Below are positions 8,295 to 43,498 of a stretch of 64,000 bases of DNA, in pieces. The stretch covers positions 13,392 through 77,391 of the forward strand of contig CAZENT010000004.1 of assembly GCA_964513845.1 (NCBI GenBank), given 5' to 3'. The stretch's first letter is position 1, and each line of letters starts with the position of its first letter. The translations under genes were made by a program, and so were the position numbers. Below the pieces are notes generated by a model, which worked only from the letters and a program-made list of their open reading frames with translations, did no database searches and was not told where the DNA came from. The DNA comes from an uncultured Pseudomonadales bacterium. GTDB lineage: Bacteria > Patescibacteriota > Microgenomatia > UBA1400 > MFAQ01.

Positions 8295-8304
8295 CCACCC
8301 CAAT

Positions 8305-8340
8305 CGTCATTGCGAGTTTTGCACTCAAACCGAAGCAATC
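8305..8340 (+). repeat. GTCATTGCGAG-n15-CGAAGCAATC mini-repeat, intergenic copy
   Basis: Shares end blocks with 7189-7221. Lies between hairpin copy 2 and tsaB start. Confidence 0.35.
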
Positions 8341-8361
8341 TCTTATACAATTGTAAATATT

Positions 8362-8688: not shown

Positions 8689-8732
8689 CATTGCTGAGGC
8701 TCATAGTAAAATACGTCCTAGAAGGCATTGAT

Positions 8733-8768
8733 ATATAACCTCCATTTGGTCACTTTGGTTATATGGAG
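8733..8768 (+). promoter_or_regulatory. Hairpin in 5' region of giant adhesin gene (ATATAACC...GGTTATAT / CTCCAT...ATGGAG)
   Basis: Two overlapping inverted repeats (8 bp and 6 bp stems) 60 nt upstream of the 8828 start. Confidence 0.25.
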
Positions 8769-8827
8769 CTAATAGTGAAACCGATCTAAAAAAAATTAGA
8801 ACGGCTAAACTGTAAAACCAATAATCA

Positions 8828-11800
8828 ATGAAATCTAGAAACATAAGAAAAATAATTTCGTTTATTTCTTCCTTTAACCTTCTTCTTCAATCTTTCCTCC
8901 CGCTAGCTATTGCAATGCCTGTTTATGCCGAAGATGCTTCTCCTGCAGCCATTGTCGAAGTCTCTCCAACTCCCGAAGTCACCCCGGAAATCACTCCCGA
9001 AGCCACTCCCACACCCGAGATCTCTGTAACTCCAGAACCAACTCCATCTGTGGAAATTACTCCGGAGCCATCAATTTCTCCAACTCCCGAAGTCACCCCC
9101 GAAATCACCCCAGAAATCACTCCAGAGCCAACAGCTGAGATCACCCCAGCCGAACAACAAAATAATGAAGAACAAAAAAACAACTCTCCACCCGCCGAAC
9201 AAAATAATATTCCTGCTGCCACTCCAACCCCCGAACCAACCATTGTCCTTCCCCAACCTCTCTCCGTAATTTCCCAACTCGAACAAGAAGCTCCAATTAT
9301 TTCTCCAACTCTATCAACTGACAAACCAGATTATTTTCCAACCGACACCGTCCACATCACCGGCACCGGCTTTTTAGCCAACACCACTTACACACTACAC
9401 ATATATTCTTCAGACAATCCAATTTTTAGTATTCGTCCAGAAGTATTGTCGGATGAATATGGCAATATTTCTCTATCATTCAGACTTGATGGAAACTACA
9501 GACCAAATTACATCGTCGATGCTATCGACAACAACGATCAAGTTGTTTTATCGTATTCGTTCTTAGATAGCCGCACATTCGTTTCTGTCACAGTAAACGG
9601 AGGATCAACTTCAACTGTGTTACCATCAGGTTCTGTCTCAGTAGACATTGATATTGATACCGATGGTACCGGAGAAGGAAGCGATTGGGAGTCGACAAAG
9701 TACACTATCGAGGGCCAATCTGCGATTTGTGACAACTCCCCCGACTATACATATGGTAGTAGTAGCGGTGCGACATCCACATATTCACTCACCGCTCCTG
9801 CAAATAATGGTACATATGATCTCGCTGTAGTTGCTTACAGTAACAATGGATGCTCAGGGCAAAGTAATACAACAACCCTGACAGACGCAATTACCGTTTC
9901 TTCTTCATTATTACAACCAGTTCTTCCTAATAATCCCTCCGATGATTATGCTCTCACATCAGTATCTGGAGTATGGACCAATGTCACAGGAGGCAGCAAC
10001 ATAACTGGAATTAATACAGAAGAAATTAGATGGGGTGTTCCCTCAGGAAGTCAAAAGAGTGGACTCCGTTTTGATGGAAGTGGTGTTCAAACGTTTAACT
10101 CAGGTAATAGTTTCTATCTTGGCGCTCTCACTCATATGAACTGGGGGACATTATCTGGTGCAGCCTCAGGAGCAAAATTAAACATTACTCTTAGTTTTTC
10201 AAAACCCACACTCTCACCAAACCCAGATTTTAGCTTTGATTTTTCAATCGAAGAAACATCGAATTCGTATGGTCACTGTCCTTCGTGGCAATCATCATTA
10301 ACACCCTGTGATGACAGAATTTCTTTTCCTGTAAGCTATGGCTCAAGAAGTTTTACCATTGGTGACAAACTATTTACCTTGAGAATCGATGGTTTTGTAA
10401 ATCAATATCCAAGTGGATCAACAGTTTCCCAATTTATTACGGAAGAACAAAAAAATAACGTTGCTTATCTTGTTGGATCATTATCATCAGTGTTGGTATC
10501 TTCTCCCCAAATATCTTTAGTTACAAAAGCCGTTGAAGGAGAGGACGCTGATTCAACTCCTGGCCAAAATTTATATGTTGGTGATACCGCCCACTTTACC
10601 TATGTTGTCCAAAACACCGGTAATGTTGATATGACTAGTGTTTCAGTAATTGATGACAGAGGTGTAGTAGTAACATGCCCTCAAACAACCTTAATCTCTG
10701 GTGCTTCGATGACCTGTACTGGTTCGAGTACTGTTGTTGTTGGTCAATACACTAACACCGCTCATGTTCACGGAACATACAACGGCACTGTGTATCAAAG
10801 TAACAATGAATCAGCCAACTATTTCGGAGTTGTTAGAAATGTATGTGGCGATGGCAACAAATCCTCATCCGAAGATTGTGATAATGGCGCAAATAATGGC
10901 ACAGTATGTACTCCTACTTACAATAATACTTGCACTTATTGTTCAGTCTCTTGTGAAATTCAAACAGTTGTTGGTCCAAAATGTGGAGACTACAACGTTG
11001 ACGCTGGAGAAACATGTGATGATGGCAATATTGTCAACGGTGATCACTGTAGTTCAACTTGTCAAACAGAAACTTGGTGTGGCGATGGAGTAAAAAATGG
11101 TTCCGAAGCCTGCGATGGTACAGATCTCGGTGGCTTATCTTCATCAACTTTTTCTTGTAACAAATGTTCACTCGAGTTAGTTGAGCCAAAAGTCACTATC
11201 TGTCACTCAACTAGCAGTCAAAGTAATCCTTATAATGTCCAAAATCCCGCCAAAACTGCCGATGTTTCTGGTCACGATGGTCATGATGGAGTAGTTTGGT
11301 ATCCTGGTATCACTGTCGCTTGGGGAGATATTATTCCTCCCTTCGCCTATATCGGCGGAACATATTCTGGTCAAAACTGGACCACTGAAGGCCAAGCAAT
11401 TTTCAACAATGGATGTAACATTCCCAATTACTGTGGAGATGGTGTAAAAGCCGGTTCCGAAGCTTGTGATGACGGCAACTCTGTCAACACAGATGCCTGT
11501 ACCAATGCTTGTACAGTATCTGTTTGTGGAGACACTATTGTTAATCCCGCAACCGAAGCTTGTGATGACGGCAACTCTGTCAACACAGATGCTTGTACCA
11601 ATGCCTGTACACTTCCTGTTTGTGGCGATAGTTTTGTCCAATCCGGCGAAGTCTGTGACGACGGTAATCGTGTAGACACCGACGCCTGTCGCAACAACTG
11701 CACTTTGCCCGTTTGTGGTGATGGAGTACTCTCCATGTCCGAAGATTGTGATGAAGGTGCTGAAAACGACACCACATGTACACCCGCCTATGGTGGTTCT

Positions 11801-14779
11801 TGTACCTACTGTCATGCTACCGAATGTAAAAACTACACCATCGACGGTCCATACTGTGGTGATGAAACCAAAAATGGTGAGGAACAATGTGATGGTACTG
11901 ATGGCGTCGGTACTCATCAGGTCTGTAATAGCGACTGTATCTTAGAAACTTTGTCATATTGTGGAGACGGAATCAAAGACACCGGTGAAGAATGCGATGG
12001 CACAGCCGGAGTAACAGCAGATAGTAATTTCTGTTCCACCTCTTGTCACTTAGTTCCCATCTACACTGGAAATAACGTTTGTAGTAATGGTAACGTCAAA
12101 GGAACCAAGCTAGCCAGCCAGACTATTTCTTCATCCTCCAAAACAGGTGAGGTTTTGAGTTTAGCTGCAGACAAAGAATATTTATTTGAAGTTAATGGAA
12201 CCTTTATTCCAACATCGGCCCTCGGATATCTCTCAGATGCCGCTCGTACATGGATCAATGGCAGTTTGTCTCCTCTCTATGGTATAAACGCAGCCGCCCC
12301 CGGTTTGGGTGCTCACTCACTGCTGGGTGATCTAGGCGATGGCGTTGGTATCATCAAATGGAACAATGTTTCTGATCATTTATATTCCTTCGCTTACACT
12401 CCAACCAACGACAACCAACAATTTGTTATCGGTGATCGTTATGGAGACTGGTTTAATACCGCCTGGCAAAATCAGGCCGGTATCAACGACAACAGAGGAG
12501 ATCTGACTCTGGATGTTTACGACTGTGTCAATCCAACAGGCAAAATAACTGTCATTAAAAATGTCGATACCAATGCTGACAGAGTTATCGAAATTGAAAA
12601 CTCTACAGATTGGACCTGGGATATTAATGATGGCGAACAAAACATCTCTACTGGTCAATCTAGAACATTAGGAATTGGTAATTACTCCATTTCTGAAGAT
12701 CAACAAGACGGATACACTCTTGTCAGTTGGTCATGTACAGATGGTACTTATGGCACGACAAATTCCATTCCTGTCGCTTTCAATAAGAATGGCGACGATA
12801 TAACTTGTACATTGACCAATGTCCGCGATACTGGTTCAATCGTTGTCAATAAATATATCGATGCTGATGGAGATATCAACACTACTTCCGATCAAACCTT
12901 AAGCGCCAACTGGCAGTTTGATGTAGATGGTCTAGATCTCGACACTACCGATGCTTTGGCTCAGTACACCGGCAGCACCGGTTCGGCCACTTTCGCCGAT
13001 CTCAAAACCGGAGGTTACACTGTAATCGAGACAAAGCAAACAGGTTTCGATCTGGTTTCAGCCAACTGTGGCGTTGAAAACGGCTCGTTTGACGGAACTG
13101 ACTCCGTTGACAACGTCCAGGTCGTCAAGGGTGAAGCAACCACCTGTACCTTCTACAACACACCAAACAGTACTATTCACGGATATAAATGGAGCGACGT
13201 TGATGGTGACGGACAGAAAGATTCTGAAGAGACTCTTCTCTCCGGTTGGACAATAAATCTCTATAAATCCGACGGTGAAGTCTTTGGTACAACACCAATA
13301 GCTACAATGAACACCAGTGAAGGGCAACATACTGGTTGGTACTGGTTCGAAAACCTCCTTCCTGGTCAATACAAGGTTTGCGAAACATTAAAAACTGGTT
13401 GGAGCCAAACATATCCTCAGAATACTGATAAAGACACCTGTCATTATGTCTCACTTCCTGATGGTTCATCGGGTACTCTCTTTGAGGACTCGGCAAGTGG
13501 CAACACTTACAACTTTGGTAACATCCAGTTAGGAAAGATCAACGTCACTAAATATAACGATTTAGATGGCGATGGTTCTCAAGACGAAAATGAAAGAGTC
13601 CTTGGCGGTTGGACAATTTCCCTATCTGATAACGAGAATCAAGTCACTGGTGAAAATGGTAAAGTCTCTTACAACGATCTCAATCCAAACAGAAGTTACA
13701 CTCTAAGTGAAAACATACAAGGAGGTTGGATTCAAACCAACATCTCTTGTACTGTCAATAACTCTGGTGAAGGAGTCAAAATCACTGCTCAGGGAGAAGC
13801 CTACGGACATCACGGTAATTGTGGTGGCTGGAATGGTTGTGGCGATGCTGCTACATGTGCCCAATGGGCCTGTCAAGCAAAAGGCTACGCCAACCTAGTC
13901 TCCTATGGCGAGTCCAAACCCTGTACTCAGTTCAGTAACTGTAATCTATTCAACAGCGGTGCCAATAATGGCGTTGATTACAACTGGGGTAACTGGTGTG
14001 AAGTAGCTGGTGTCACCGACATTGTTTGTAGCAATTCCACCGGGGACTCGTACTCAGGTGAACGTTTACCTCTCTATGCTGGTAACGATCCCGAGAACTC
14101 CAGAAACCTCAATGTAAATGCTGGAGATATTATCAACTGTTCCATCGGCAATCATCGTGTCGAACCCAAGCTCAAAATTAGTCGTTCAAACAATGCCACC
14201 TCATCTCTCACTCCAGGTGGAAGTGTTGAACATACGATTACTATTAAAGTCGAGGATAACAACATTAGTAACCTTAAACTTACCGATCTTCTTCCCAACG
14301 GTTTCAAATTCAGAGCCGGTTCATACTCAGTGATGAAAAACGGAACCGATGTTGTAACCCTGGCTCACGATCCAGAGTATCACTCTCCAGGTGTTTGGGA
14401 GCTCGGAAACTTTAATAAAAATGATGTAATAACTATCAAATACCTTGCTGATATTAGCGGAGACGTCGAACCTGGAACATATCCCGATCTCGCTTCCGCC
14501 ATAGCTAACGATGCATATGAGCAAGGGCTAAGTTTCCTCGCAATCGGAGAAAACTCCAAATATGTTGATGAAAACTTCGTCGGCACCGACGTTGAGATAG
14601 TCAAGAGTCAAACTCGTGACGACTCATACAATGTCGAAAAAGAAGAAATAATTAAAGGCGAAGTTCTCGGTACTTCCACCAGCTTACCCGCAACTGGCGC
14701 TTCTCCGATGTGGCTCATGCTTGCCTTCATCAGTCTTGTCTATGGAATCAGATTAATAAAGTCGAGTAACAAAAAGTAA
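8828..14779 (+). CDS. Giant (1983 aa) sortase-anchored surface protein / putative adhesin
   Basis: Signal peptide; PEVTPEITPE low-complexity tract; ~9 Cys-rich CGDGxxxxxExCDDGNxxxxDxC repeats (Myxococcus-type Cys-rich repeat); several SdrD-B/Cna-B-like DxDGDG...GW modules; DUF11-like C-terminal domain; LPATG followed by hydrophobic span and KK tail. Confidence 0.85.
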   Translation: MKSRNIRKIISFISSFNLLLQSFLPLAIAMPVYAEDASPAAIVEVSPTPEVTPEITPEATPTPEISVTPEPTPSVEITPEPSISPTPEVTPEITPEITPEPTAEITPAEQQNNEEQKNNSPPAEQNNIPAATPTPEPTIVLPQPLSVISQLEQEAPIISPTLSTDKPDYFPTDTVHITGTGFLANTTYTLHIYSSDNPIFSIRPEVLSDEYGNISLSFRLDGNYRPNYIVDAIDNNDQVVLSYSFLDSRTFVSVTVNGGSTSTVLPSGSVSVDIDIDTDGTGEGSDWESTKYTIEGQSAICDNSPDYTYGSSSGATSTYSLTAPANNGTYDLAVVAYSNNGCSGQSNTTTLTDAITVSSSLLQPVLPNNPSDDYALTSVSGVWTNVTGGSNITGINTEEIRWGVPSGSQKSGLRFDGSGVQTFNSGNSFYLGALTHMNWGTLSGAASGAKLNITLSFSKPTLSPNPDFSFDFSIEETSNSYGHCPSWQSSLTPCDDRISFPVSYGSRSFTIGDKLFTLRIDGFVNQYPSGSTVSQFITEEQKNNVAYLVGSLSSVLVSSPQISLVTKAVEGEDADSTPGQNLYVGDTAHFTYVVQNTGNVDMTSVSVIDDRGVVVTCPQTTLISGASMTCTGSSTVVVGQYTNTAHVHGTYNGTVYQSNNESANYFGVVRNVCGDGNKSSSEDCDNGANNGTVCTPTYNNTCTYCSVSCEIQTVVGPKCGDYNVDAGETCDDGNIVNGDHCSSTCQTETWCGDGVKNGSEACDGTDLGGLSSSTFSCNKCSLELVEPKVTICHSTSSQSNPYNVQNPAKTADVSGHDGHDGVVWYPGITVAWGDIIPPFAYIGGTYSGQNWTTEGQAIFNNGCNIPNYCGDGVKAGSEACDDGNSVNTDACTNACTVSVCGDTIVNPATEACDDGNSVNTDACTNACTLPVCGDSFVQSGEVCDDGNRVDTDACRNNCTLPVCGDGVLSMSEDCDEGAENDTTCTPAYGGSCTYCHATECKNYTIDGPYCGDETKNGEEQCDGTDGVGTHQVCNSDCILETLSYCGDGIKDTGEECDGTAGVTADSNFCSTSCHLVPIYTGNNVCSNGNVKGTKLASQTISSSSKTGEVLSLAADKEYLFEVNGTFIPTSALGYLSDAARTWINGSLSPLYGINAAAPGLGAHSLLGDLGDGVGIIKWNNVSDHLYSFAYTPTNDNQQFVIGDRYGDWFNTAWQNQAGINDNRGDLTLDVYDCVNPTGKITVIKNVDTNADRVIEIENSTDWTWDINDGEQNISTGQSRTLGIGNYSISEDQQDGYTLVSWSCTDGTYGTTNSIPVAFNKNGDDITCTLTNVRDTGSIVVNKYIDADGDINTTSDQTLSANWQFDVDGLDLDTTDALAQYTGSTGSATFADLKTGGYTVIETKQTGFDLVSANCGVENGSFDGTDSVDNVQVVKGEATTCTFYNTPNSTIHGYKWSDVDGDGQKDSEETLLSGWTINLYKSDGEVFGTTPIATMNTSEGQHTGWYWFENLLPGQYKVCETLKTGWSQTYPQNTDKDTCHYVSLPDGSSGTLFEDSASGNTYNFGNIQLGKINVTKYNDLDGDGSQDENERVLGGWTISLSDNENQVTGENGKVSYNDLNPNRSYTLSENIQGGWIQTNISCTVNNSGEGVKITAQGEAYGHHGNCGGWNGCGDAATCAQWACQAKGYANLVSYGESKPCTQFSNCNLFNSGANNGVDYNWGNWCEVAGVTDIVCSNSTGDSYSGERLPLYAGNDPENSRNLNVNAGDIINCSIGNHRVEPKLKISRSNNATSSLTPGGSVEHTITIKVEDNNISNLKLTDLLPNGFKFRAGSYSVMKNGTDVVTLAHDPEYHSPGVWELGNFNKNDVITIKYLADISGDVEPGTYPDLASAIANDAYEQGLSFLAIGENSKYVDENFVGTDVEIVKSQTRDDSYNVEKEEIIKGEVLGTSTSLPATGASPMWLMLAFISLVYGIRLIKSSNKK
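11455..11740 (+). repeat. Three tandem 96-nt (32-codon) Cys-repeat units; first two ~97% identical over the ~59-nt compared stretch
   Basis: ccgaagcttgtgatgacggcaactctgtcaacacagatgcYtgtaccaatgcYtgtaca occurs at 11455 and again 96 nt later at 11551. Third unit diverged. Confidence 0.7.
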
Positions 14780-22827: not shown

Positions 22828-23070
22828 ATGGAAGAATACAAACAATCTAGCATGTTAACCTCCGATGGTACCAAGCCAGACAGTAGTATTGTTAGTCGAA
22901 ACATGGATAATGAAGCAGATCTGATTTTTCAAACAGAAGAACAAAAGAAAATTGCTCTTGATCTTATTAAAGAAGGAGAAGCAACAGATCTTCGTGATGC
23001 TTGGACAAAAATGAGAGCTGACGCTATAAATGATCCGGTAAACCAGGTCCATGTAAGAATAAAGAAATAA
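22828..23070 (+). CDS. Small hypothetical protein (80 aa)
   Basis: ORF only. Acidic. Convergent with trmD. Confidence 0.3.
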   Translation: MEEYKQSSMLTSDGTKPDSSIVSRNMDNEADLIFQTEEQKKIALDLIKEGEATDLRDAWTKMRADAINDPVNQVHVRIKK

Positions 23071-23076
23071 GTAGAA

Positions 23077-23709
23077 TTACTTACTCTTTCTCCACTCCGC
23101 AATTTTCTTATGATCCCCCGAAAGTAGTATCTCTGGCACATTCCAACCCTTGTAATCGGCCGGTCGGGTGTACTGAGGATACTCAGTCTCAAACTCTTCC
23201 GAGTAAGACTCTTCTTCAAGTGATTTAGGATTTCCCAAGGCTCCGGGAAGCAATCGAACGATTGAGTCTACCATTACCATCACCGGCAGCTCTCCGCCAG
23301 ACAAAACATAAGGTCCAATAGAATACACTTCGTCAACCAAGTTATCGTGAACTCGATGATCAATGCCTTCAAAATGGGGGGCTATCATGATCAAATGTTC
23401 TTCACTTTTTAGTGTTTCAGCCACTTTTTGGCTATACATTTTACCCTTTGTATCGAGCAATATTACTTTGCTTCCGGGTTTTTTCAGATCAGCCAGGGCT
23501 CGGTCAATTACGTCCACTCTCATCACCATACCGGCTCCGCCCCCAAAAGGACGATCGTCCACACTTTTGTAATTATCATCGCTCCAGTCACGCAGATTAT
23601 GCACTTTAATCTCCACCACACCCGTCCCCGTGGCTCTGCCAATGATAGATGTCCCAAAAACTTTATCAAACATCTCCGGAAATATCGTCAAAATATCGAT
23701 TTTCATCAA
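23077..23709 (-). CDS. trmD: tRNA (guanine37-N1)-methyltransferase
   Basis: MKIDILTIFPEMF... and GYEGIDHRV/SIGPYVLSGGELP blocks characteristic of TrmD (SPOUT fold). 210 aa. Confidence 0.9.
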   Translation of the reverse strand: MMKIDILTIFPEMFDKVFGTSIIGRATGTGVVEIKVHNLRDWSDDNYKSVDDRPFGGGAGMVMRVDVIDRALADLKKPGSKVILLDTKGKMYSQKVAETLKSEEHLIMIAPHFEGIDHRVHDNLVDEVYSIGPYVLSGGELPVMVMVDSIVRLLPGALGNPKSLEEESYSEEFETEYPQYTRPADYKGWNVPEILLSGDHKKIAEWRKSK

Positions 23710-23880
23710 GCTATATTATACCAACCCCATAATGACGTAGTAATTATGGGTGTTTCAGTATAAGAGGAAGCGCAAGATTTTTCAGATACATAACGAAGTT
23801 ATGATGAAAAATCGAGCAAGCTCTTATATCAAGCTCAAATCATTTTCGAACAAATGGTATATATTTCACCTTCCGTTTGG

Positions 23881-24025
23881 CATTTAGTATTTTTGACAAT
23901 AAGTCGCACGTCCGTACATTTTCTTGATTTTCAGACTACTGTCTGCGAGCCTACGCGACGAGCGGGCGAGAATCAAGAAAATAGGAACCGACGGGCACCG
24001 AAGGTGACGTCATAAAATACTAAAT
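23881..24025. ncRNA. Candidate structured RNA / nested imperfect palindrome (6S-RNA-like topology) in trmD-CDGSH intergenic region
   Basis: Outer arms catttagtatttttgac (23881-23897) and gtcataaaatactaaatg (24008-24025) are reverse complements with one indel. Inner arms attttcttgatt (23918-23929) and aatcaagaaaat (23970-23981) are a perfect 12-bp stem. ~20x22-nt internal loop and 36-nt GC-richer apical region. Strand unknown. Confidence 0.3.
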
Positions 24026-24122
24026 GACAAAAGAGGAAGGGGGATATTCTAATTAATTCTGAAAAAGCACACGCTCGGTCCTCAGAAAGATAAGTACGAG
24101 AGGAATCAAGAACTCAAATAGT

Positions 24123-24398
24123 TTGATATATAATCAACCTATGCCAAGACTAGTCAAAAAAACAGCTCACGGTCCGGTTATGGTTGGGGATAAAGCCATC
24201 TGTATGTGCGGTCTGAGTAAAAATCAGCCTTTTTGCGATGGTTCTCACGTCAAAACAATTGACGAAGACGAGAAAAAACTCTACTGGTACGACGACGATG
24301 GAAAACAGACTATCGTTGAAACAGATGAGGGTTGCGAAGAAGAGTGTTGTGGTAAATGTTCCAGTGACTGTTGTAAAGAAGATAAAAAAGCTAAATAA
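24123..24398 (+). CDS. CDGSH-type iron-sulfur domain protein with Cys-rich C-terminal tail
   Basis: CMCGLSKNQPFCDGSH matches the CDGSH [2Fe-2S] signature. Tail CEEECCGKCSSDCC. Start may be 24141. Confidence 0.7.
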   Translation: MIYNQPMPRLVKKTAHGPVMVGDKAICMCGLSKNQPFCDGSHVKTIDEDEKKLYWYDDDGKQTIVETDEGCEEECCGKCSSDCCKEDKKAK

Positions 24399-24400
24399 CT

Positions 24401-25582
24401 ATGGAAAAACTTCCCATCGCTGTTGTTGTCATCCCTACTTACAACGAGGCCGAGACGATAGGAGAAATGATCGACACTCTTTGTGCCAAAGTTTTTCCTA
24501 AAATCAAAGACTACCAGTGCAAACTTTTGGTAGTGGACGACACTTCTCCAGACGGCACTTACAAAATTGTTCAAGCCAAGCAGAAAAAATACTCAAATCT
24601 TGAGCTTTATTTGAATCCCACCAAAGCCGGAATCGGCGGAGCGTATGTCAAAGGCTTCAGACATGCCATGTCCGCTCTCAAGGCCGATGTCTTGATCGAA
24701 TTCGATGCAGATTTTCAACATCCACCCAAAGACATTCCGGTTTTACTCAAAGAAATTTCCAATGGTTATGACTATGTTTTAGGATCACGCAAAATTAAAG
24801 GTGGTAGTAATCCCAAAGGCTGGGGTTTCAAACGAGTCTTTTTTAGTGAAGCCGGCGGTATGGTCGCCAGACTAGTTCTTTTCTTCCCTTCCAAAATGTT
24901 CTTCAAGATTACCGACCCTACCACGGGCCTCAAAGCTTCTCGGGTCAAAGGCTTTGTTGATACTATGGACATGGATCATTTGTATTCCAGAAGTTTTGGC
25001 TACAAGCTTGAGTTTCTTTACAAAATGGTTCAGCTTGGAGCCAAGGTCAAAGAAATTCCACTCAAGTTCGGACTTCGCACCAAAGGCGAGTCCAAGATCG
25101 AGCCCAAAACAGCTAAGGATGTATTTCGTTCCGTCTTTCTTCTTAGATGGTCAGATCCTACCACCAAGAAATTTATCAAATTCGGCTGCATCGGTCTTTT
25201 TGGCTTTGTCATCAACAAAGTCGGTTTAGATGTTTTTGCCAAAGGACTCCAAAATTTGATCAATACCGTTGGTGTCAGAAACTTTGTGGCCAATGCTCTC
25301 GCCGCCGAAGTATCTATCATCAGCAACTTTATTCTTAACAATCTTTGGACTTTCAAAAACGAGAAACTTATCTGGGGCAAAAAACTCATTCAAAAATTTG
25401 CCACCTTCAATCTCAGCTCTGTTATTTCCGGCATCATTATTCCTAGTATCATTATCGGAGCCGGTACCCAAATTTTTGGAGATCAATATCGCTTCCTCTT
25501 CCTCGTCATTGCCGTGTTCTTCTTCACTGTTCCCCTCAACTGGTTCATCTACAACCTCATCATCTGGAAGAAAAAGAAATAA
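24401..25582 (+). CDS. Polyprenol-phosphate glycosyltransferase (GT2, DPM1/ArnC/GtrB-like) fused to GtrA-like C-terminal membrane domain
   Basis: N-terminal VVIPTYNE...VVDDTSPDGT...DADFQHPP GT2 signature. C-terminal 4-TM GtrA-like region (KFIKFGCIGLFGFVINKVGLDVF...). Confidence 0.8.
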   Translation: MEKLPIAVVVIPTYNEAETIGEMIDTLCAKVFPKIKDYQCKLLVVDDTSPDGTYKIVQAKQKKYSNLELYLNPTKAGIGGAYVKGFRHAMSALKADVLIEFDADFQHPPKDIPVLLKEISNGYDYVLGSRKIKGGSNPKGWGFKRVFFSEAGGMVARLVLFFPSKMFFKITDPTTGLKASRVKGFVDTMDMDHLYSRSFGYKLEFLYKMVQLGAKVKEIPLKFGLRTKGESKIEPKTAKDVFRSVFLLRWSDPTTKKFIKFGCIGLFGFVINKVGLDVFAKGLQNLINTVGVRNFVANALAAEVSIISNFILNNLWTFKNEKLIWGKKLIQKFATFNLSSVISGIIIPSIIIGAGTQIFGDQYRFLFLVIAVFFFTVPLNWFIYNLIIWKKKK

Positions 25583-25619: not shown

Positions 25620-26300
25620 ATGTCATGGATATTTTTGGATGAAAGTGGCCAATTTTTCAAAAATGAAAAACAAAAATATTTTGTAGTTGGGTCTTTTACA
25701 ACTGGTAATCCAAATAGAACTAAAAAAGGATTTAAATCTTGGCAAACTCAAAAATTTCCCAAAAAACAAAAAGGTCAGTCAGAAATAAAGTTTTCAGACA
25801 TAAAAATTGATGATAAATTAAGAATCAAAACCCTGAATCATTTGTCTGGTCTTGATATCAGAATCATGTATGTTTTTCTATTAACAGACAATATTCCAAG
25901 CGAATATCGTAAAAAAAATAAAGTTGTTGACACTGGGTTGCTTTATGTAAATGTAATAGGTGAACTGTTAGAGATGTATCTTCCTTGTACAGACAAAGAG
26001 TTTAGAATTTTTTGTGACAAGCGTCACCTTAAAGGTATTACAACCTCTGAATTTAAAAAGTTGTTAACAAACAGACTTTCTCCTCAATTACCATCATCAA
26101 CAATTGTTCAAATTGAAATGATTGATTCAACTACAAATCCAAATATTCAAATTGCTGATTGGATTTCAAGTGCTTTAGGTAGATCGTTTAATGGAGGAGA
26201 AATGGGGAGTGAATGCAAATTATCTCTTAAAAACAATATTGTTTCAGAAAAAGAATTATTTAAAGATTATTGGGCAAAAAAACAAAAAACTCGAACTTAA
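25620..26300 (+). CDS. DUF3800-family protein
   Basis: N-terminal IFLDESG and C-terminal QIADWISSAL blocks match the DUF3800 signature. Markedly AT-rich codon usage relative to neighbours. Followed by its own terminator. Confidence 0.6.
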   Translation: MSWIFLDESGQFFKNEKQKYFVVGSFTTGNPNRTKKGFKSWQTQKFPKKQKGQSEIKFSDIKIDDKLRIKTLNHLSGLDIRIMYVFLLTDNIPSEYRKKNKVVDTGLLYVNVIGELLEMYLPCTDKEFRIFCDKRHLKGITTSEFKKLLTNRLSPQLPSSTIVQIEMIDSTTNPNIQIADWISSALGRSFNGGEMGSECKLSLKNNIVSEKELFKDYWAKKQKTRT

Positions 26301-26314: not shown

Positions 26315-26471
26315 AGAAGCAGCGTCTTTCAAAGTGGTTTTCTTCGACTTTTGTTCCGGATTCTCCGGAGGAACACCAAAGCACTTAGAAAGTTATTATT
26401 GCTAGCCTCTGTCAACATAATATGACAAGGTAAGGTGAATGTCAAGTCACAGGCACAAAAAGATGCAAAAA

Positions 26472-42332: not shown

Positions 42333-43250
42333 ATGTCCAAAATAAATATCTCAGCAGTTGTCAACACTAGAAACGAAGAAAAAAATATTGAAGACTGTCT
42401 TCGGTCTTTAGAGTTTGCAGATGAAATCATCGTCGTTGATATGGAGTCGACAGATGACACGAAGCAAATCGCCAAAAAATACACCGACAAAGTTTTTGAT
42501 ACAAAAATGGTTGGCTATGTTGAGCCAGCCAGAAACTTTGCCATCAGTAAAGCTGTTGGCGACTGGGTTTTGATTGTTGATGCTGATGAGCGTATTCCCA
42601 AAACTCTTGCCAAGAAGCTCATCGAGATCACCGAAGGCCAGGATGTTGATTTTGTGAGAATCCCCAGAAAAAATCTAATTTTTGGTCAATGGACTCAGCA
42701 CTCCCGTTGGTGGCCGGACTTCAACATCCGCTTTTTTAAAAAGGATGCCGTCGAGTGGCAAAACGAAATCCACTCCATTCCGGTGACAACAGGTATTGGA
42801 ATCAATCTCGATACTGAAGAGTCCCTTGCCATCGAACATCACCACTACAACAATGTTGATGAATACTTCGAACGAGCTCTTCGCTACTCATCTCAGCAAG
42901 CCAAAGAGCTAATAAATTCCGGATACAAATTCGACGCCAAAGACTTCATCGTTAAACCCATTAGTGAATTCATAAGTCGATTCTTCGCCGGCGAAGGATA
43001 CAAAGATGGTCTTCATGGATTGATTCTGGCCTTCCTTCAAATGTTTTCCGTCATGCTTATTTATCTGAAAGTCTGGCAAGCAGAAGGTCAAGAGCCCAAA
43101 AAAGCCGGCTTCTTTACCCCCATCTGGCAAAAGCTTTTCCTTGAGAAGTTCAAAGAACTTCGTTACTGGTATCTCACCGTGCTCATCCAAAGCCAACCCT
43201 CCAAAACCAAGCGCTTTCTCCTAAAGCTCACCCGCAAGCTAAGTAAATAA
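42333..43250 (+). CDS. GT2 glycosyltransferase
   Basis: ISAVVNTRNEE...IIVVDMESTDDT...VDADE GT2 motifs. Start at 42333 directly after stop of previous gene. Confidence 0.75.
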   Translation: MSKINISAVVNTRNEEKNIEDCLRSLEFADEIIVVDMESTDDTKQIAKKYTDKVFDTKMVGYVEPARNFAISKAVGDWVLIVDADERIPKTLAKKLIEITEGQDVDFVRIPRKNLIFGQWTQHSRWWPDFNIRFFKKDAVEWQNEIHSIPVTTGIGINLDTEESLAIEHHHYNNVDEYFERALRYSSQQAKELINSGYKFDAKDFIVKPISEFISRFFAGEGYKDGLHGLILAFLQMFSVMLIYLKVWQAEGQEPKKAGFFTPIWQKLFLEKFKELRYWYLTVLIQSQPSKTKRFLLKLTRKLSK

Positions 43251-43498
43251 TATTTTTCTAAAAACCATAAAACCATCCATTTCGAACGAGTTGCTTCGCA
43301 TGCGCGTCGTAGGATTCTTTCGAATTCTTATAAAAAGTGGCGAGATAGGCACGCTTGACGACTGCCTAGATTGAGACCACATAATATGAGAAAGAAGACT
43401 ACAGCGACCGATGCATTAGTGAGAAATGTGGTGGTGAGTGGTTTAGGGAAATATTATTTATCTGATAAGTCAGCTTTGATATACACTATAATTAATCA

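Follow-up and report, generated by a model that had tools for sequence, protein, structure and literature searches.

A structured, lineage-specific hairpin between trmD and a CDGSH gene in Collierbacteria DNA, at one of two sites where unrelated hairpins replace one another

The question raised by this locus is what kind of element occupies the spacer between two divergent genes, trmD (PF01746) and the gene of a CDGSH protein (PF09360). In the stretch of DNA analysed here (64,000 nucleotides, hereafter named the window) this spacer is a 413-bp gap, described earlier as unusually long, and is the longest non-coding gap of the window. It contains a hairpin (hereafter named W1; conserved core 23876-24031) that a preliminary description, made from the sequence, had proposed as a candidate 6S-like RNA or, alternatively, as a miniature inverted-repeat transposable element (MITE) or an operator.

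The nested imperfect palindrome placed by that description at 23881-24025 is present, together with its arms, and is wider than claimed (23861-24047). Its left arm, catttagtatttttgac (23881-23897), pairs with gtcataaaatactaaatg (24008-24025) leaving one bulged base, and the inner stem formed by attttcttgatt (23918-23929) and aatcaagaaaat (23971-23982) extends to 15 bp with one mismatch. When the whole gap was folded, nested pairing spanned from about 23861/23870 to 24043/24047; the size of W1 is about 160-190 nt, and the portion 23876-24031 is the one kept in the relative L084. The predicted energy of the + strand RNA 23860-24040 is -64.2 kcal/mol, compared with -38.4 ± 4.0 kcal/mol for dinucleotide shuffles (z -6.4; 0 of 200 equal), and that of the - strand RNA is -62.9 kcal/mol (z -6.6; again 0 of 200 equal). 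In the comparison with shuffled controls that had been recommended, the fold is thus far more stable than the shuffles on both strands, at z values of about -6.4. There is no strand asymmetry between these two energies, and the copy of L084 folds slightly better on the - strand. Among the nine window gaps of at least 120 bp, strongly negative fold z-scores were obtained for two, the W1 gap and 43251-43498. W1 was also the top palindrome (61 bits; the next one scored 52) when the window and about 70 related loci, about 600 kb of Collierbacteria DNA, were compared with their own complement by BLAST. The GC-rich apical region described earlier is evident, with a GC content of 0.48-0.53 in the interior and 0.30-0.37 in the arms.

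A consensus fold of the two haplotypes of W1, that of the window and that of L084, consists of a 22-bp closing stem, an asymmetric bubble and an 85-nt terminal arm. The 5' strand of the bubble has 11 nt free and the 3' strand, of 15 nt, holds a mini-hairpin; hence, the asymmetric internal loop and the closing-stem, bubble and terminal-stem shape of the original proposal persist in the consensus. Two nearly isoenergetic forms were predicted for the window sequence, a fully paired rod (-55.1 kcal/mol) and the bubble form (-54.5 kcal/mol), the rod being favoured by 0.6 kcal/mol. No terminator-like site was found on either strand between 23600 and 24300, and a U-tract after W1 is absent. A 53-aa ORF with no exact match on record lies inside W1; a coding role was dropped because L084 retains only 37 codons of it. 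The coordinates of these elements and of their neighbours are collected in Table 1.

Table 1. Features between 23704 and 24143 of the window, and copies of the hairpin families A and C
Feature	Position	Strand	Remarks
P1 closing stem, 5' strand	23876..23897	+	AT-rich; holds the left arm 23881-23897; pairs with 24009-24031 (consensus of window and L084)
P1 closing stem, 3' strand	24009..24031	+	Within the roughly 80%-identity patch 23995-24088; two pairing-neutral changes relative to L084
Bubble, 5' strand AAUAAGUCGCA	23898..23908	+	Unpaired in the RNAalifold consensus; paired in the alternative rod of the window sequence
Terminal arm	23909..23993	+	P1b, 23909-15 with 23987-93; P2, 23917-32 with 23968-84
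Two apical hairpins of the terminal arm	23933-44 (loop UACU), 23949-67	+	
P3 mini-hairpin, 3' bubble strand	23996..24006	+	CACC-GAA-GGUG; L084 has UCGCU-GCU-AGCGA
Candidate promoter of a + strand hairpin transcript TGGTATATATT	23855..23865	+	Inferred start near 23872
Sigma-70-like match inside W1: TTGACA, 16 nt, TACATT	23893..23920	+	Consensus scan, 10/12 positions
CDGSH promoter and start codon	24124..24143	+	TATAAT 24129-34, 6 nt, ATG at 24141
trmD start and -10 box	23704..23720	-	ATG 23706-23704; TATAAT 23720-23715
Small hairpin CCCATAAT-N9-ATTATGGG	23726..23750	.	Adjoins the trmD -10 box; a similar hairpin adjoins the CDGSH -10 box in L039
Family C hairpin TATAAGAGCTTGCTC ... GCGCTTCCTCTTATA	23759..23828	-	Second repeated module in the W1 gap
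Family A copies	L044:994-1147(-), L088:1042-1195(+), L006:2806-2961(-), L042:1113-1254(-), L099:1-104(+), L087:1-84(+)		
Family C copies	window 23759-23828 (-); L039:3891-3960; L062:2981-3054; L066:1811-1825 (partial)		

The sequence TGGTATATATT, located just upstream of W1, resembles the CDGSH promoter TGATATATAAT (24124-24134), and its -10-like box sits 7 nt ahead of the first paired bases of W1, so that it may be regarded as a putative promoter for a W1 transcript. A duplication of the CDGSH promoter ahead of W1 was considered and rejected, the local alignment being not significant (49 of 2000 shuffles score equally). A 269-bp tandem duplication, considered from two direct repeats, was rejected too, with unexceptional identity at that offset; the direct repeats at offset 269 are themselves not significant.

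Close relatives were found by exact-protein look-ups of members of the cluster. L084, which is 95.7% identical to the window over 901 nt, carries the whole of W1, and L083 and L086 (99.7% identical to the window) start inside the hairpin. The divergence between the window and L084 is concentrated at 23995-24088, where identity falls to about 80%, the flanks being 96-100% identical. Of the differences within W1, three are double compensations, three are wobble-neutral and one is disruptive. Two changes fall in the P1 3' strand, one located in a bulge (24013) and the other, 24019 A>G, giving a U.G pair, and 23890 T>A in L084 breaks one P1 pair. In the apical pair 23950/23966 the C-G of the window is replaced by U-A in L084, a compensatory change, and in the P3 mini-hairpin, where 7 of the 11 bases have changed, the hairpin is kept, with two double compensations. 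Since most of the changes in L084 are compensatory or leave the pairing unaffected, it is the pairing itself that appears to be kept. This is suggestive, but not proof, of selection on the base pairing of W1, the covariation evidence being thin because the element is known from only two haplotypes.

The window was assigned to Candidatus Collierbacteria, of the candidate phyla radiation, by a scan of species-representative genomes anchored on TrmD. The order trmD, CDGSH and GT2-GtrA is conserved across the relatives and the spacer is not. In 50 of the 62 related loci (genomes and metagenomes holding both genes) only 20-99 bp separate the two start codons, and others have different hairpins or inserted genes in the spacer. 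About 370 bp of the window (roughly 23730-24100) lack a counterpart in the short-spacer relatives, and no W1 homolog was found in relatives with TrmD proteins 85-94% identical. Because most relatives have no hairpin of any kind at this site, W1 is dispensable. Where the spacer is short, both genes are preceded by a TATAAT box that lies 6-8 nt from the ATG, and the arrangement of the CDGSH gene is conserved even where the whole spacer measures 20-25 nt. This short distance between TATAAT and ATG is the reason why the trmD and CDGSH mRNAs appear to be leaderless. In L007, L008, L010, L018, L019, L043 and others the trmD-CDGSH spacer of 20-25 nt is essentially one palindromic TATA box, which implies overlapping, back-to-back leaderless promoters. 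Other spacers (L014, L017, L020, L021 and L024) are filled with tandem 8-nt repeats (AACTCAAG / AATCAAG; compare window 24098-24121), whose CAAGAA core recurs inverted in W1 and in the apical hairpins of family A (see below); they might serve as a binding motif for a protein or represent a series of -35-like elements.

A long hairpin is present at the W1 site in L006 (=L047), L042, L044 (=L045), L088 (=L089) and L049. In four of these relatives (L044, L088, L006 and L042) it belongs to what we named family A, a three-way junction of about 155 nt. Comparison of L044 with L088 revealed eight double compensations in 49 pairs, none of them broken. Two covariance models, R1 and R2, were built from the four sequences; R1, for which only L044 and L088 were used, recovers L006 (41.6 bits) and L042 (26.8 bits) over their full length. 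In the four-sequence alignment 95.7% of the cells pair and 38 of the 49 pairs have changed on both sides, with a covariation score of 0.83 compared with 0.31 for shuffles and 0.09-0.15 for slid controls, although fitting the alignment to the model favours this score. The bulge GCYWGGW and the loop CGCWGG, both conserved, are mutually pairable and form a candidate pseudoknot, in which C-Y-W-G of the bulge can pair with C-W-G-G of the P3 loop, with one switch from A-U to U-A. All six copies of family A are co-oriented with a downstream glycosyltransferase gene. Family A looks like an undescribed structured RNA motif. Model R1 does not match W1 or its L084 counterpart at E<=10 with filters off, and R2 finds L099 and L087 but not W1. 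W1 is grouped with families A and B by position and general form only.

Family B is the hairpin present at the W1 site of L049, which is another species. Over 148 nt it shares 88.5% identity with the segment 43280-43426 of W2, a rod-like hairpin located at 43243-43461 (+) of the window, in the 248-bp gap between two GT2 genes, and three compensatory pairs separate the two copies. W2 folds at -82 kcal/mol on the + strand versus -64 kcal/mol on the - strand. In families A and B the fold of the sense strand is better by 3-18 kcal/mol, and the hairpins, which have the same orientation as the glycosyltransferase gene downstream, stop 15-40 nt short of a TATAAT-N6-7-ATG promoter; W1 ends further away than either of them, about 85-100 nt upstream of the CDGSH -10 box. 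No homology between W1 and W2 was found on comparison, and a shared TTTTCGAAC motif was discarded as a mark of common origin, since it is too short to weigh. None of the hairpins (W1, W2 and those of five related loci) has a match in Rfam 15.

Unrelated structured hairpins (W1, family A and family B) thus replace one another between strains at two hot spots, the trmD-CDGSH spacer and the site between two GT2 genes. L087, which is 98% identical to the window over 24101-24500, has family A in place of W1. L099, whose GT2 protein is 98% identical and whose sample also yielded a W1-bearing contig, has family A at the second site in place of the family B of the window. Families A and B each occur at both hot spots. 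At the second site, family B is absent from L100, L101 and L104; the two GT2 genes of L100 overlap without a spacer, and in the genomes of L049 and L006 a PMT gene is found, with a spacer of 68-72 nt.

The family C hairpin measures about 70 nt; its ends TATAAGAGCTTGCTC ... GCGCTTCCTCTTATA are conserved and its middle is variable. These ends are common to L039/L074, L062 and, in part, L066, where they occupy other positions and orientations. In the window and in L039 family C is followed by the CCCATAAT hairpin and a -10 box, an arrangement directed towards trmD in the window but towards CDGSH in L039. REP-like short units with the structure GATTGC-hairpin-GCAATGACGA were also observed at about 8304-8343 (-) of the window, in L013, in L017 and, in two copies, in L062; these units recur in Collierbacteria spacers, often right ahead of a TATAAT box.

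Several Logan assemblies break inside W1: L025 ends at 23911, L026 and L027 start at 24009, L083 and L086 at 23920, and L085 at 23970. The contigs of L087 and L099 also start inside hairpins, and such breaks were seen at both hot spots in several runs. The breaks were rejected as a sign of repeats or inversion. They probably have a technical cause, namely loss of coverage over palindromes, because they also fall inside unrelated hairpins at the second site; mixed alleles or inversion would be the alternative.

The predicted resemblance of W1 to 6S RNA (RF00013) is one of form only. Both measure about 160-190 nt and, on the predicted folds of W1, would share a closing stem, a bubble, a terminal arm, a hairpin in the 3' strand and competing conformers. 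6S RNA is a discrete transcript that binds the RNA polymerase holoenzyme and templates product RNA. W1 might be a trans-acting small RNA produced from its own promoter, for instance a 6S-like decoy of RNA polymerase in which the bubble would mimic an open promoter. Its dimensions would fit (a 22-bp stem, an 11-nt free 5' strand, an 85-nt arm and about 160 nt overall), as would the conserved mini-hairpin in the 3' bubble strand and the -10-like box placed 7 nt before the first paired bases. Two conformers belong to the release mechanism of 6S RNA, and W1 has two that are nearly isoenergetic. However, the comparison with Rfam proposed in the preliminary description (cmscan for RF00013 and others) gave no 6S match in 23650-24200 at E<=10, and none for the 177-nt hairpin alone at an effective threshold of about 11 bits (matches being listed down to 11.4). 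No 6S RNA reaches the gathering score anywhere in the window, and the weak Rfam matches to the lone hairpin are chance matches to microRNA-precursor hairpins. The conservation expected of a housekeeping 6S RNA was not found either, with a 20-99 bp spacer in 50 of the 62 related loci. A housekeeping identity does not fit W1, because the element is absent from most relatives and is swapped for non-homologous RNAs, as in the 98% identical L087, where an unrelated hairpin stands in its place. In addition, there is no terminator after W1, and the promoter similarity is not significant. Membership in the 6S family is therefore not supported, and we consider a trans-acting role of this kind improbable. 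Full-text searches revealed no paper on 6S RNA in the Candidate Phyla Radiation, and none on RNA motifs in Collierbacteria or of relevance to MITEs in Patescibacteria.

Of the MITE alternative, the part that stood is that W1 is a lineage-specific insert in a hairpin hot spot, with filled and empty sites among the relatives, as would be expected for a MITE. W1 would then be selfish or neutral mobile palindromic DNA, or a remnant of it, in a permissive spacer, and its structure would reflect its inverted-repeat ends. The variation in presence at the orthologous site agrees with this, as do the occurrence of families A and B at two loci and the make-up of the gap, a mosaic of repeated palindromic modules; moreover, family B is 88.5% identical between two species with TrmD proteins 85% identical and trmD DNA about 75-78% identical. 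Nevertheless, W1 cannot be shown to be a MITE, because neither a further copy, nor a target-site duplication, nor a transposase in its neighbourhood was found. The search for further copies of the arms that had been suggested, done with mismatches allowed and by BLAST, revealed none in the 64-kb window or in about 440 kb of related loci, and two exact patterns of W1, searched for in IMG/VR and in plasmid and phage collections, matched only 18-mers that occur by chance in the coding sequence of viral contigs. The viral matches to motifs of families A and B were likewise discarded as chance. A target-site duplication is lacking because the flanks of W1 are complementary and not direct repeats (GTTTGG / ACAAAAG next to P1, CCTTCC / GGAAGG further out), and neither a transposase nor a recombinase was found among the ten odd-strand or unassigned ORFs of the window that were checked. 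Pairing extends through the whole element and not through its ends alone, the changes in L084 are compensatory, and the likeness of the inner arm to a motif native to the spacer points to a local origin. Taken together, a mobile or formerly mobile origin without function is possible but unlikely. The last of these observations leads to another reading, in which W1 would have arisen locally, as a quasi-palindrome without function, when the template was switched on repeats native to the spacer. A match to its 3' inner arm, GAATCAAGA..AAATAG, lies close to the promoter, in GAATCAAGAACTCAAATAG (24102-24121; 21 of 5000 shuffles equal), and related 8-nt repeats fill the five spacers mentioned above, all of which hints at an origin of W1 from the spacer motif. 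Only about 18 nt of W1 can be traced to that motif, however, and the compensatory changes in L084, together with the sparing of the P1 3' strand within the divergent patch, argue for selection on pairing, which leaves a purely local and functionless palindrome improbable. It is more doubtful still that W1 acts as DNA, either as a cruciform or operator between the divergent promoters or as an invertible promoter segment bounded by the P1 repeats. Its position between divergent promoters, the TTGACA-16-TACATT match in its interior and the CAAGAA/TTCTTG motifs that recur in the spacer across species are compatible with such a role, and so are the breaks of assemblies inside the hairpin and the location upstream of a surface-glycosylation cluster, where invertible promoters typically sit (as in the capsule loci of Bacteroides). 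Against it, all the assembled copies (window, L083, L084, L085 and L086) have one orientation, the whole interior is paired, which an invertible segment does not need, the breaks are probably technical, as they also occur in unrelated hairpins elsewhere, and no recombinase is present among the ORFs tested.

The reading that we favour, tentatively and with somewhat less than even confidence, is that W1 is a lineage-specific hairpin cassette selected for its structure, which would act as a sense (+) RNA at a transcript boundary in the manner of ERIC and REP elements. ERIC and REP elements act at transcript boundaries in enterobacteria. The structure of W1, its conservation and its lineage-specific presence are observed, as is the swapping of cassettes; we infer its transcription, its strand and its function. 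W1 lies in a hypervariable spacer between the divergent promoters of trmD and of the CDGSH-glycosyltransferase genes, both apparently leaderless. In the window 48 of the 55 ORFs are on the + strand, and trmD (23077-23709) is one of seven on the - strand, located 6 nt from the stop of a converging + strand gene (22828-23070). These 6 nt between converging stops leave no room for a terminator, and since trmD is a - strand island in a + strand array, + strand read-through from upstream would cross trmD in antisense and arrive at W1. There the stable fold-back might stop or cap it and so shield the downstream promoter. A read-through transcript of a leaderless gene is useless, because its start codon is buried without a ribosome-binding site, and this would be the fate of an unshielded CDGSH gene. 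The hairpin of the second site includes, in its outer stem, the stop codon of the gene upstream. A boundary role would also explain why unrelated stable hairpins substitute for each other.

Several observations weigh against this boundary role. W1 is followed neither by a U-tract nor by any other signature of an intrinsic terminator, it lacks strand asymmetry (and in L084 the - strand folds slightly better), and it lies 85-100 nt from the -10 box, further than families A and B. Most relatives manage without a hairpin, and the evidence for W1 comes from two haplotypes, with one change that breaks a pair. Furthermore, the conserved unpaired motifs of family A suggest a more specific partner, and W1 is not a member of family A according to the covariance model. 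A broader proposal, which we regard as rather unlikely, is that W1, A and B represent an undescribed class of exchangeable structured-RNA cassettes in candidate-phyla-radiation bacteria, moving between a few hot spots upstream of apparently leaderless surface-glycosylation promoters, where each would set transcript boundaries or promoter activity. If this were true, the swapping of cassettes would make strains differ in how they express the glycosylation cluster.

Taken by itself W1 is a modest finding, and the setting of cassette swapping is the more interesting part. In candidate-phyla-radiation bacteria little is known of regulatory RNA or of non-coding DNA that is mobile, and here two sites of a glycosylation cluster hold at least three unrelated, structure-maintained hairpins that are exchanged between nearly identical strains, one of them a covariation-rich three-way junction (family A) absent from Rfam. 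If these hairpins act on the transcription of surface-glycan genes, they would give organisms with few classical regulators a simple way to vary from strain to strain, and one that can be tested. Two known RNAs were also detected in the window. A c-di-GMP-II riboswitch at 8712-8795 (+; 65 bits, gathering score 53.5) is located just upstream of a 1983-aa ORF (8828-14779), and a DUF3800-V RNA at 26315-26410 (-; 74.7 bits), 2.3 kb from W1, adjoins a DUF3800 gene (25620-26300). The DUF3800 gene and its RNA are jointly missing at the same place in L001, L006 and others, and L083 and L087 have a different gene, of 210 aa, there.

Among known systems, eleven unrelated RNA structures have been associated with DUF3800 genes (Weinberg et al. 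2017, PMC5737381). Like the hairpins described here, these motifs are dissimilar structures that share one genomic setting in the same bacterial group; the hairpins do not track DUF3800, however, since L006 has family A without a DUF3800 gene at the locus. With 6S RNA the comparison fails on the lack of a covariance-model match, on conservation among close relatives and on the exchange of W1 for non-homologous hairpins. MITEs such as the Correia elements of Neisseria are, like W1, short non-coding inserts with inverted ends, located near promoters, variable between strains and able to carry promoter-like sequences; W1 differs from them in that no target-site duplication, repeated copies or parent transposon were found, and in being paired over its whole body. 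The ERIC and REP-BIME elements of enterobacteria share with W1 the form of an imperfect palindrome of 100-200 nt, an intergenic position in an array of co-directional genes, an occupancy that differs between close relatives, a mosaic arrangement with other small palindromic modules, pairing kept by compensatory change and, by analogy, a possible RNA-level role in transcript ends, stability or insulation. ERIC and REP are present in tens to hundreds of similar copies per genome, whereas W1 is single-copy in the DNA examined, families A, B and C being found at two or more loci across genomes. Unlike ERIC and REP, several unrelated families share the same two sites in these bacteria, and family A among them forms a three-way junction that has a candidate pseudoknot.
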